This document shows positions 15,159-15,913 of a stretch of DNA of 64,000 nt, piece by piece. A program made the translations under genes and the position numbers. A model generated the notes under the pieces. That model searched no databases and had not been told where the DNA came from. It worked only from the letters and a program-made list of their open reading frames with translations. The stretch is taken from the sequence record PZ154897.1; one strand, 5' to 3'. The first letter of the stretch is position 1. The number at the start of each line of letters is the position of its first letter. The DNA comes from a phage.

Positions 15159-15707
15159 ACCCAAGAAAACATCTACAGAACGTTGATACCACTGCAAATC
15201 CAAATAGCCATTACGCACATTAAACTGATAGAACATATGACAAGGCGGTAATGCCATATATTTAAGTTCAGCTGGATTCCACGCCGACACAATTTGACGC
15301 CTATCATTCGGCAGTTTTTTAATACGATCAATAACTTCTACAATTTGGTCTACACCGCCAAAATCACGCCACTGTTTTCCATAAATTGGACCAAGTTCAC
15401 CACTATGATATCCTAAATCTTTTGCTTGATTTTCGTAATTTTCATCCCAGACTGTTTTGCCTTGAATTAATGAATCATGCTGAATTAATCGTAAATCATT
15501 TACGTTAGTACTTCCTGACAAAAACCAAAGGAGCTCAGCAATACAAGCTTTCCAGGCGAGCTTCTTAGTCGTTACTGCAGGAAAACCTTTAGTTAAATCC
15601 CAGCGTAATTTAGTACCGAACAGAGCAATTGTTCCTGTGCCTGTTCGATCATCAGTTTCATAACCATTTTCCAGGATATCTTTAATTAAAAATTGGTATT
15701 GTTTCAT
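15159..15707 (-). CDS. td: thymidylate synthase, exon 1 (183 codons from ATG 15707; ORF track used upstream TTG)
   Basis: [26 protein letters not shown]...; exon1+exon2 = 286 aa like T4 TS. Confidence 0.9.
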
Positions 15708-15913
15708 TAGTTCATCCAAGAATATGTAGAAGGATATTTGGCAAAGTTAGGCTTATATCCTAATTTAACCATTTGTTTTGCTTTGCGAGTAAATCCTAAA
15801 GAACGCTCACCTTTAAGATATTGTTTTGGTGTCATAGGCCCTTGATGCATCTGCCGACAAATAAAAAGGGCCATAGCATTAGGAACATCCTTAACTTTTA
15901 ATTTATTGCTCAT
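15707..15913 (-). CDS. small basic protein (68 aa) inserted between frd and td
   Basis: ATG overlaps frd TGA (ATGA) and its TAA overlaps td ATG (TAATG); 13 K/R versus 2 D/E. Confidence 0.45.

Follow-up and report, generated by a model that had tools for sequence, protein, structure and literature searches.

In phage T4 the genes frd and td overlap directly as ATGA and the slot between them is empty, and in T2 and T6 this slot holds only RB32ORF229c, an open reading frame (ORF) of 115 amino acids (aa) belonging to PHROG 1928. The stretch of phage DNA analysed here (sequence record PZ154897.1, 64,000 nt, hereafter the window) carries another small ORF at the same place, orf68, which codes for a basic protein of 68 aa unrelated to RB32ORF229c. 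It belongs to a T4-type nucleotide-metabolism cluster located on the minus strand in the order gene 32, frd.x genes, frd, orf68, td exon 1, intron, td exon 2 and nrdA. At the frd-td junction exactly 204 nt, flanked by the 5-nt direct repeat AATGA, distinguish the window from T4. Very probably orf68 is an accessory gene of the family PHROG 9550 which occupies a polymorphic frd-td slot and is mobile between phages; it would be translationally coupled to its neighbours and may play an auxiliary role. The features of the locus, in window coordinates, are:

15707..15913 (stop codon included), minus strand, orf68, 68-aa basic protein, PHROG 9550
15910..15913, minus strand, ATGA overlap of the orf68 start with the frd stop, preceded by the same sequence as td in T4
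15705..15709, minus strand, TAATG overlap of the orf68 stop with the td start
15910..16491, minus strand, frd (dihydrofolate reductase), the upstream gene
15159..15707, minus strand, td exon 1 (183 codons), the downstream gene
14585..14896, minus strand, td exon 2

A preliminary description made from the sequence alone had placed a 68-aa ORF between frd and td at 15707-15913, naming no strand, with an ATGA overlap on the frd side and a TAATG overlap on the td side, and had set it against the direct frd/td overlap of T4. Coordinates, translation and T4 comparison all bear this out. The ORF runs from 15913 to 15707 on the minus strand and its translation is exactly the 68-aa sequence given there. 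Base by base, its ATG (15913..15911) overlaps the frd TGA (15912..15910), the reverse complement of 15910..15913 being ATGA, and its TAA (15709..15707) overlaps the td ATG (15707..15705), the reverse complement of 15705..15709 being TAATG.

Orf68 is already catalogued, both as a PHROG family and as identical proteins annotated in many GenBank records. Its residues 1-68 align with positions 1-68 of the 68-position hidden Markov model (HMM) of PHROG 9550 (E=1.3e-45). A megablast search with the junction matched 565 phage records, 136 of which are covered over the complete frd-orf68-td arrangement, and the annotation of orf68 among them is nearly always "hypothetical protein". By tblastn, matches to orf68 were found in 238 phage records, namely 134 with at least 95% identity, about 32 with 60-95% (mainly Klebsiella T4-likes) and 72 with less than 60% (Phapecoctavirus). 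Identity to orf68 is 100% in many Tequatrovirus records, about 79% in Klebsiella phages and about 43% in Phapecoctavirus, the named homologues including WPK17800.1 of phage BYEP01 and gp28 of phAPEC8 (AFU62604.1). Protein searches covering 5.8 plus 1.8 billion proteins returned 40 clusters and 10 distant representatives, all 66-108 aa in length, and the residues R20, M48, G52 and P55 are invariant across the PHROG 9550 relatives. The labels "flagellar biosynthesis protein" and "DUF4858" found for PYPS2T, vB_EcoM_P8, VAC36 and Shinka were not adopted, as neither was reproduced by Pfam or NCBIfam, and a literature search on PHROG 9550, the orf68 peptide sequence, RB32ORF229c and frd-td ORFs found no relevant description. 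In the GenBank record of JS98 (EF469154.1) an intact orf68, 98.5% identical to the window copy, falls in an unannotated 200-nt frd-td gap (2495..2701 of the retrieved locus).

Comparison with T4-like relatives gives a ratio of nonsynonymous to synonymous substitution rates (dN/dS) of 0.11-0.15 for orf68 at dS values of 1.1-1.4, which are saturated, and a similar ratio (0.13-0.31) for frd. Because the synonymous sites of orf68 are saturated, a hidden RNA element is unlikely, and an Rfam scan detected nothing at orf68, the td intron being the only match. Those homologues that do not overlap a neighbouring gene carry a strong Shine-Dalgarno (SD) site of their own, for example taaggaggtttcgATG in phAPEC8. 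Judged by sequence, orf68 is a genuine and conserved small accessory protein-coding gene under purifying selection.

The slot in which it lies is polymorphic, with at least three alleles within Tequatrovirus: empty, PHROG 1928 and orf68. The PHROG 1928 allele is located as follows:

5973..6320 of the T6 locus and 4750..5097 of the T2 locus, RB32ORF229c, PHROG 1928, 115 aa, between frd and td

RB32ORF229c is present at no less than 90% identity in approximately 363 phage records and is labelled a putative homing endonuclease in one record, with no visible support. A fuller order, frd, PHROG 1928 (one or two copies), orf68 and td, is found in Klebsiella-type and uncultured T4-likes. An orf68 homologue lies directly 5' of td in three metagenomic contigs, Klebsiella phage CP-p-KP-21072 and Dhakavirus JS98, and in most of these five divergent T4-likes one or two copies of PHROG 1928 stand between frd and the homologue. 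The idea of a two-gene module of orf68 and PHROG 1928 was rejected, as the two co-occur in T4-likes only and PHROG 1928 was not found beside the homologues in other phages. On the td side the stop/start overlap (TAATG, TGATG or GTGA) recurs in each of the six T4-like relatives examined, and the upstream overlap in five of the six, with a 4-nt gap instead in CP-p-KP-21072.

The T4-type contiguous junction was found in 2 of 30 evenly sampled hits of a 52-nt junction probe, which is a rough estimate, as split matches were joined and the probe gave no clean count of empty junctions. The empty frd/td junction of T4 looks like a minority state and is probably derived, and the AATGA repeats at both ends are compatible with a microhomology-mediated loss that would have given the T4 state. 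Since the slot is polymorphic and the fuller arrangement occurs in other genera, the preliminary wording that the ORF is "inserted" holds relative to T4 only; the divergent Tevenvirinae-like phages examined carry orf68 directly 5' of td, and in T2 and T6 the slot is otherwise filled.

The window and Dhakavirus JS98 share a sharply bounded region:

15670..15925 (approximate), minus strand, island of 97-100% nucleotide identity to JS98

The island comprises orf68 and extends about 12 nt into the end of frd and about 40 nt into the beginning of td, and its flanks are 50-90% identical. At the protein level orf68 is 98.5% identical between the two phages and frd only 76%. Such an island amid such flanks points clearly to a recent lateral exchange of orf68, evidently by recombination through the conserved frd and td ends. 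The exchanged cassette includes about the first 13 codons of td and brings the Td variants D6F and F12L with it. Orf68 would accordingly be able to move between co-infecting phages via homologous recombination at the conserved 3' end of frd and 5' end of td. As T4, T2 and T6 do without it, it appears dispensable in some lineages. That PHROG 9550 spreads among genera of Tevenvirinae and into Stephanstirmvirinae through a selectable benefit, be it counter-defence, host take-over or tuning of Td, is a rather doubtful proposal; if it is true, the sharp 255-nt island shared by Tequatrovirus and Dhakavirus would mark a recent sweep.

Outside the T4-likes the homologues of PHROG 9550 lie within long arrays of small early hypothetical genes, both in Phapecoctavirus (for example, phAPEC8 gp28) and in several uncultured large phages, at 29-47% identity to orf68, and on one contig they are found near replication genes. 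In the contexts examined these homologues are never beside td and have no recurrent neighbour. Guilt by association gave nothing there, every neighbour being an unrelated PHROG with no assigned function. Outside the T4-likes orf68 is thus, to judge from these contexts, not obligately linked to td. The preliminary description had assigned the ORF to the nucleotide-metabolism operon. It does lie within the frd-td operon, but the link to nucleotide metabolism itself is weakened, because the Phapecoctavirus and uncultured-phage homologues sit in small early-gene arrays far from td.

No sigma-70-like site, MotA box or terminator-like site was detected within or beside orf68 by consensus scans of 15600..16000, for which reason the simplest reading places orf68 on the frd-td transcript. 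The upstream context of the orf68 start is exactly that of td in T4, and the 3' end of orf68 contains a TGGATG motif, 8-11 nt ahead of the td start, that is conserved in all T4-like relatives examined. Because of these two features, together with the overlaps, translational coupling at both junctions is plausible. Orf68 would be carried on one polycistronic mRNA with frd and td and would probably be translated by termination-reinitiation, starting from the ATGA coupling site which in T4 serves td, after which ribosomes would be handed to td through the stop/start overlap of orf68 itself.

The product was said to be very basic and to carry no recognised motif, and the calculated values agree, with an isoelectric point of 10.26 and a net charge near +10.6 for a protein of 7.9 kDa, as do searches of Pfam, NCBIfam and, with a profile, PDB sequences, none of which gave a match. 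The AlphaFold2 (AF2) model based on a 32-sequence alignment with distant members has a mean predicted local distance difference test score (pLDDT) of 85.5 and a predicted template modelling score (pTM) of 0.62; an earlier model with a 19-sequence alignment had a pLDDT of 57.6 and was unusable. The model shows helices at residues 13-24, 29-38 and 43-49, against which both terminal segments pack, and residue 12 is bridged to residue 59, from which orf68 is predicted to form one compact domain. A Foldseek search of the model against PDB returned nothing, the orthologue of orf68 itself was the only return of a fold search in BFVD, and PADLOC defence HMMs did not match any of four PHROG 9550 members at E<=1. 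The product may therefore be pictured as a compact, strongly basic, three-helix, single-domain protein with no relative found, and it would act early in infection in an auxiliary capacity, binding nucleic acid or an acidic factor of the host or the phage.

The early-gene arrays, the patchy distribution and the lateral exchange are indirect pointers toward the anti-defence or take-over class. We tentatively suggest, with somewhat less than even confidence, that orf68 is neither an enzyme of nucleotide metabolism nor an obligate partner of Td, and is instead an auxiliary binding protein in host take-over or counter-defence. Several points weigh against the picture of a coupled, mobile accessory gene with such a role. 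The grounds for the role are the charge and size of the product, the early-gene context and the lateral mobility, and no functional homologue of orf68 was found either by sequence or by fold; its translation and coupling are likewise read here from sequence features. Frameshifted copies occur in two records, Shigella phage SH7 and Klebsiella phage EI. The SH7 copy (2452..2656 of the retrieved locus) has one extra A and a C-to-A change that together form an 8-A run and is otherwise identical, and in the EI copy (2501..2705 of the retrieved locus) the reading frame is shifted; these could be cases of pseudogene decay, very recent in SH7, or of sequencing error. Finally, that orf68 stands strictly next to td in several T4-like genera could reflect a Td-related role.

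This last point leads to the strongest of the alternatives, that orf68 serves specifically as partner or regulator to Td or dihydrofolate reductase, in the form of a small subunit or chaperone of the deoxynucleoside triphosphate (dNTP) synthetase complex or of a translational regulator of td. The adjacency to td with its stop/start overlap holds in all T4-like carriers examined, even though frd is only 31-76% identical across genera, and the exchanged cassette carries the first 13 or so td codons with D6F and F12L, as would suit such a partner. However, in Phapecoctavirus and uncultured phages the homologues, at 29-47% identity, lie away from td, active Td is made by T4, T2 and T6 without orf68, and positional conservation is expected anyway in T4-like genomes, so that a dedicated partnership is judged unlikely. 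Far less credit can be given to the view that frd and td are separated by a non-coding spacer or RNA element in which the ORF occurs by chance. It is true that orf68 is short, has no recognised domain and stays unannotated in some records such as JS98, but the dN/dS of 0.11-0.15 with saturated dS, the preservation of start, length and motifs in 40 clusters and in no fewer than two phage subfamilies, the SD sites that homologues possess and the negative Rfam scan at orf68 have effectively refuted this explanation already, at least by sequence criteria, and its probability is close to nil.

A homing origin is also highly improbable, though slightly less so than a chance ORF; orf68 would then be a remnant of a free-standing homing endonuclease or its DNA-binding module standing alone, or else one part of a selfish cassette that spreads by homing. 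The td intron is next to the locus, orf68 separates two conserved genes in the manner of mobE and segG, the sharp identity island is common to different genera, the alternative occupant of the slot bears the label of a putative homing endonuclease in one record, and, by eye, a stretch of orf68 resembles a helix-turn-helix (HTH) module of the NUMOD1 type that homing endonucleases carry. Pfam nevertheless found no GIY-YIG or HNH motif in orf68, and a comparison with the DNA-binding domains of I-TevI and MobE by hhalign gave probabilities of 0.1% and 0.3%, respectively, the local look-alike between I-TevI residues 193-215 and the N-terminus of PHROG 9550 not being significant. Neither a sequence match to an HTH family nor a fold match to HTH structures was found for orf68, and both the HTH/NUMOD1 and the homing-relic ideas fail because the fold searches returned no relative.

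Several neighbouring features of the window also differ from their T4 counterparts. The intron that interrupts td is a short one:

14897..15158, minus strand, td group I intron of 262 nt, full-length RF00028 match with 76 bits

It equals the T4 td intron minus a 754-nt block holding almost all of the I-TevI ORF, and the spliced td codes for an intact protein of 286 aa. Directly upstream of frd there is an 81-aa ORF (16491..16736, minus strand) whose end overlaps the start of frd as TAATG; T4 lacks it, RB32ORF231c of T6 matches it with 96% identity, and it marks a second polymorphic accessory slot in the operon. The gene 32 ORF (17469..18647, minus strand) has 392 aa versus 301, as gp32 is fused in frame to Frd.3 through the loss, compared with T4, of about 105 nt comprising the last eight codons of gene 32, the stop, the terminator hairpin and part of the frd.3 promoter. 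Phage BYEP01, the closest relative, has a similar, larger deletion, its gene 32 ORF being annotated through frd.3. In BYEP01 nrdA is annotated in two pieces around a 711-nt hypothetical ORF (6125..8651 of its locus), which may be due to an intron or a homing-endonuclease insertion; the window has nrdA as a single intact ORF of 754 aa (11762..14026).

With respect to the frd-td junction as a whole, one or the other of two small accessory genes usually occupies the slot, and the textbook ATGA overlap of frd and td is one allele of it, which corrects the T4-centric picture. The 204-nt cassette is bounded by coupling junctions and its exact deletion regenerates the T4 junction, making it experimentally tractable; orf68 is useful for the study of reinitiation through inserted cistrons and of small, laterally exchanged early proteins of T-even phages, and beyond these uses it is an ordinary uncharacterised phage ORF.

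Compared with known systems, orf68 resembles the mobE (nrdA-nrdB) and segG (32-59) cassettes in being present or absent between conserved genes and shares with such T-even homing cassettes the signature of lateral transfer with short co-converted flanks; unlike them, it has neither a nuclease domain nor similarity to their DNA-binding modules. RB32ORF229c is likewise a small accessory ORF of the same slot, standing directly upstream of orf68 in Klebsiella-type T4-likes, but its 115-aa sequence is unrelated and its ends in T2 and T6 show short non-coding gaps instead of overlaps. With coupled overlapping pairs such as frd/td of T4, orf68 has in common the ATGA/TAATG junctions that suggest its own coupling. 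The copy in phAPEC8 and other Phapecoctavirus phages is preceded by an SD of its own and has small early genes around it, whereas orf68 of the window adjoins td. The hypothetical proteins of PHROG 9550 in Tequatrovirus, Dhakavirus, Klebsiella T4-likes and phAPEC8 are direct homologues, and the window copy is one of them, with nothing to set it apart.
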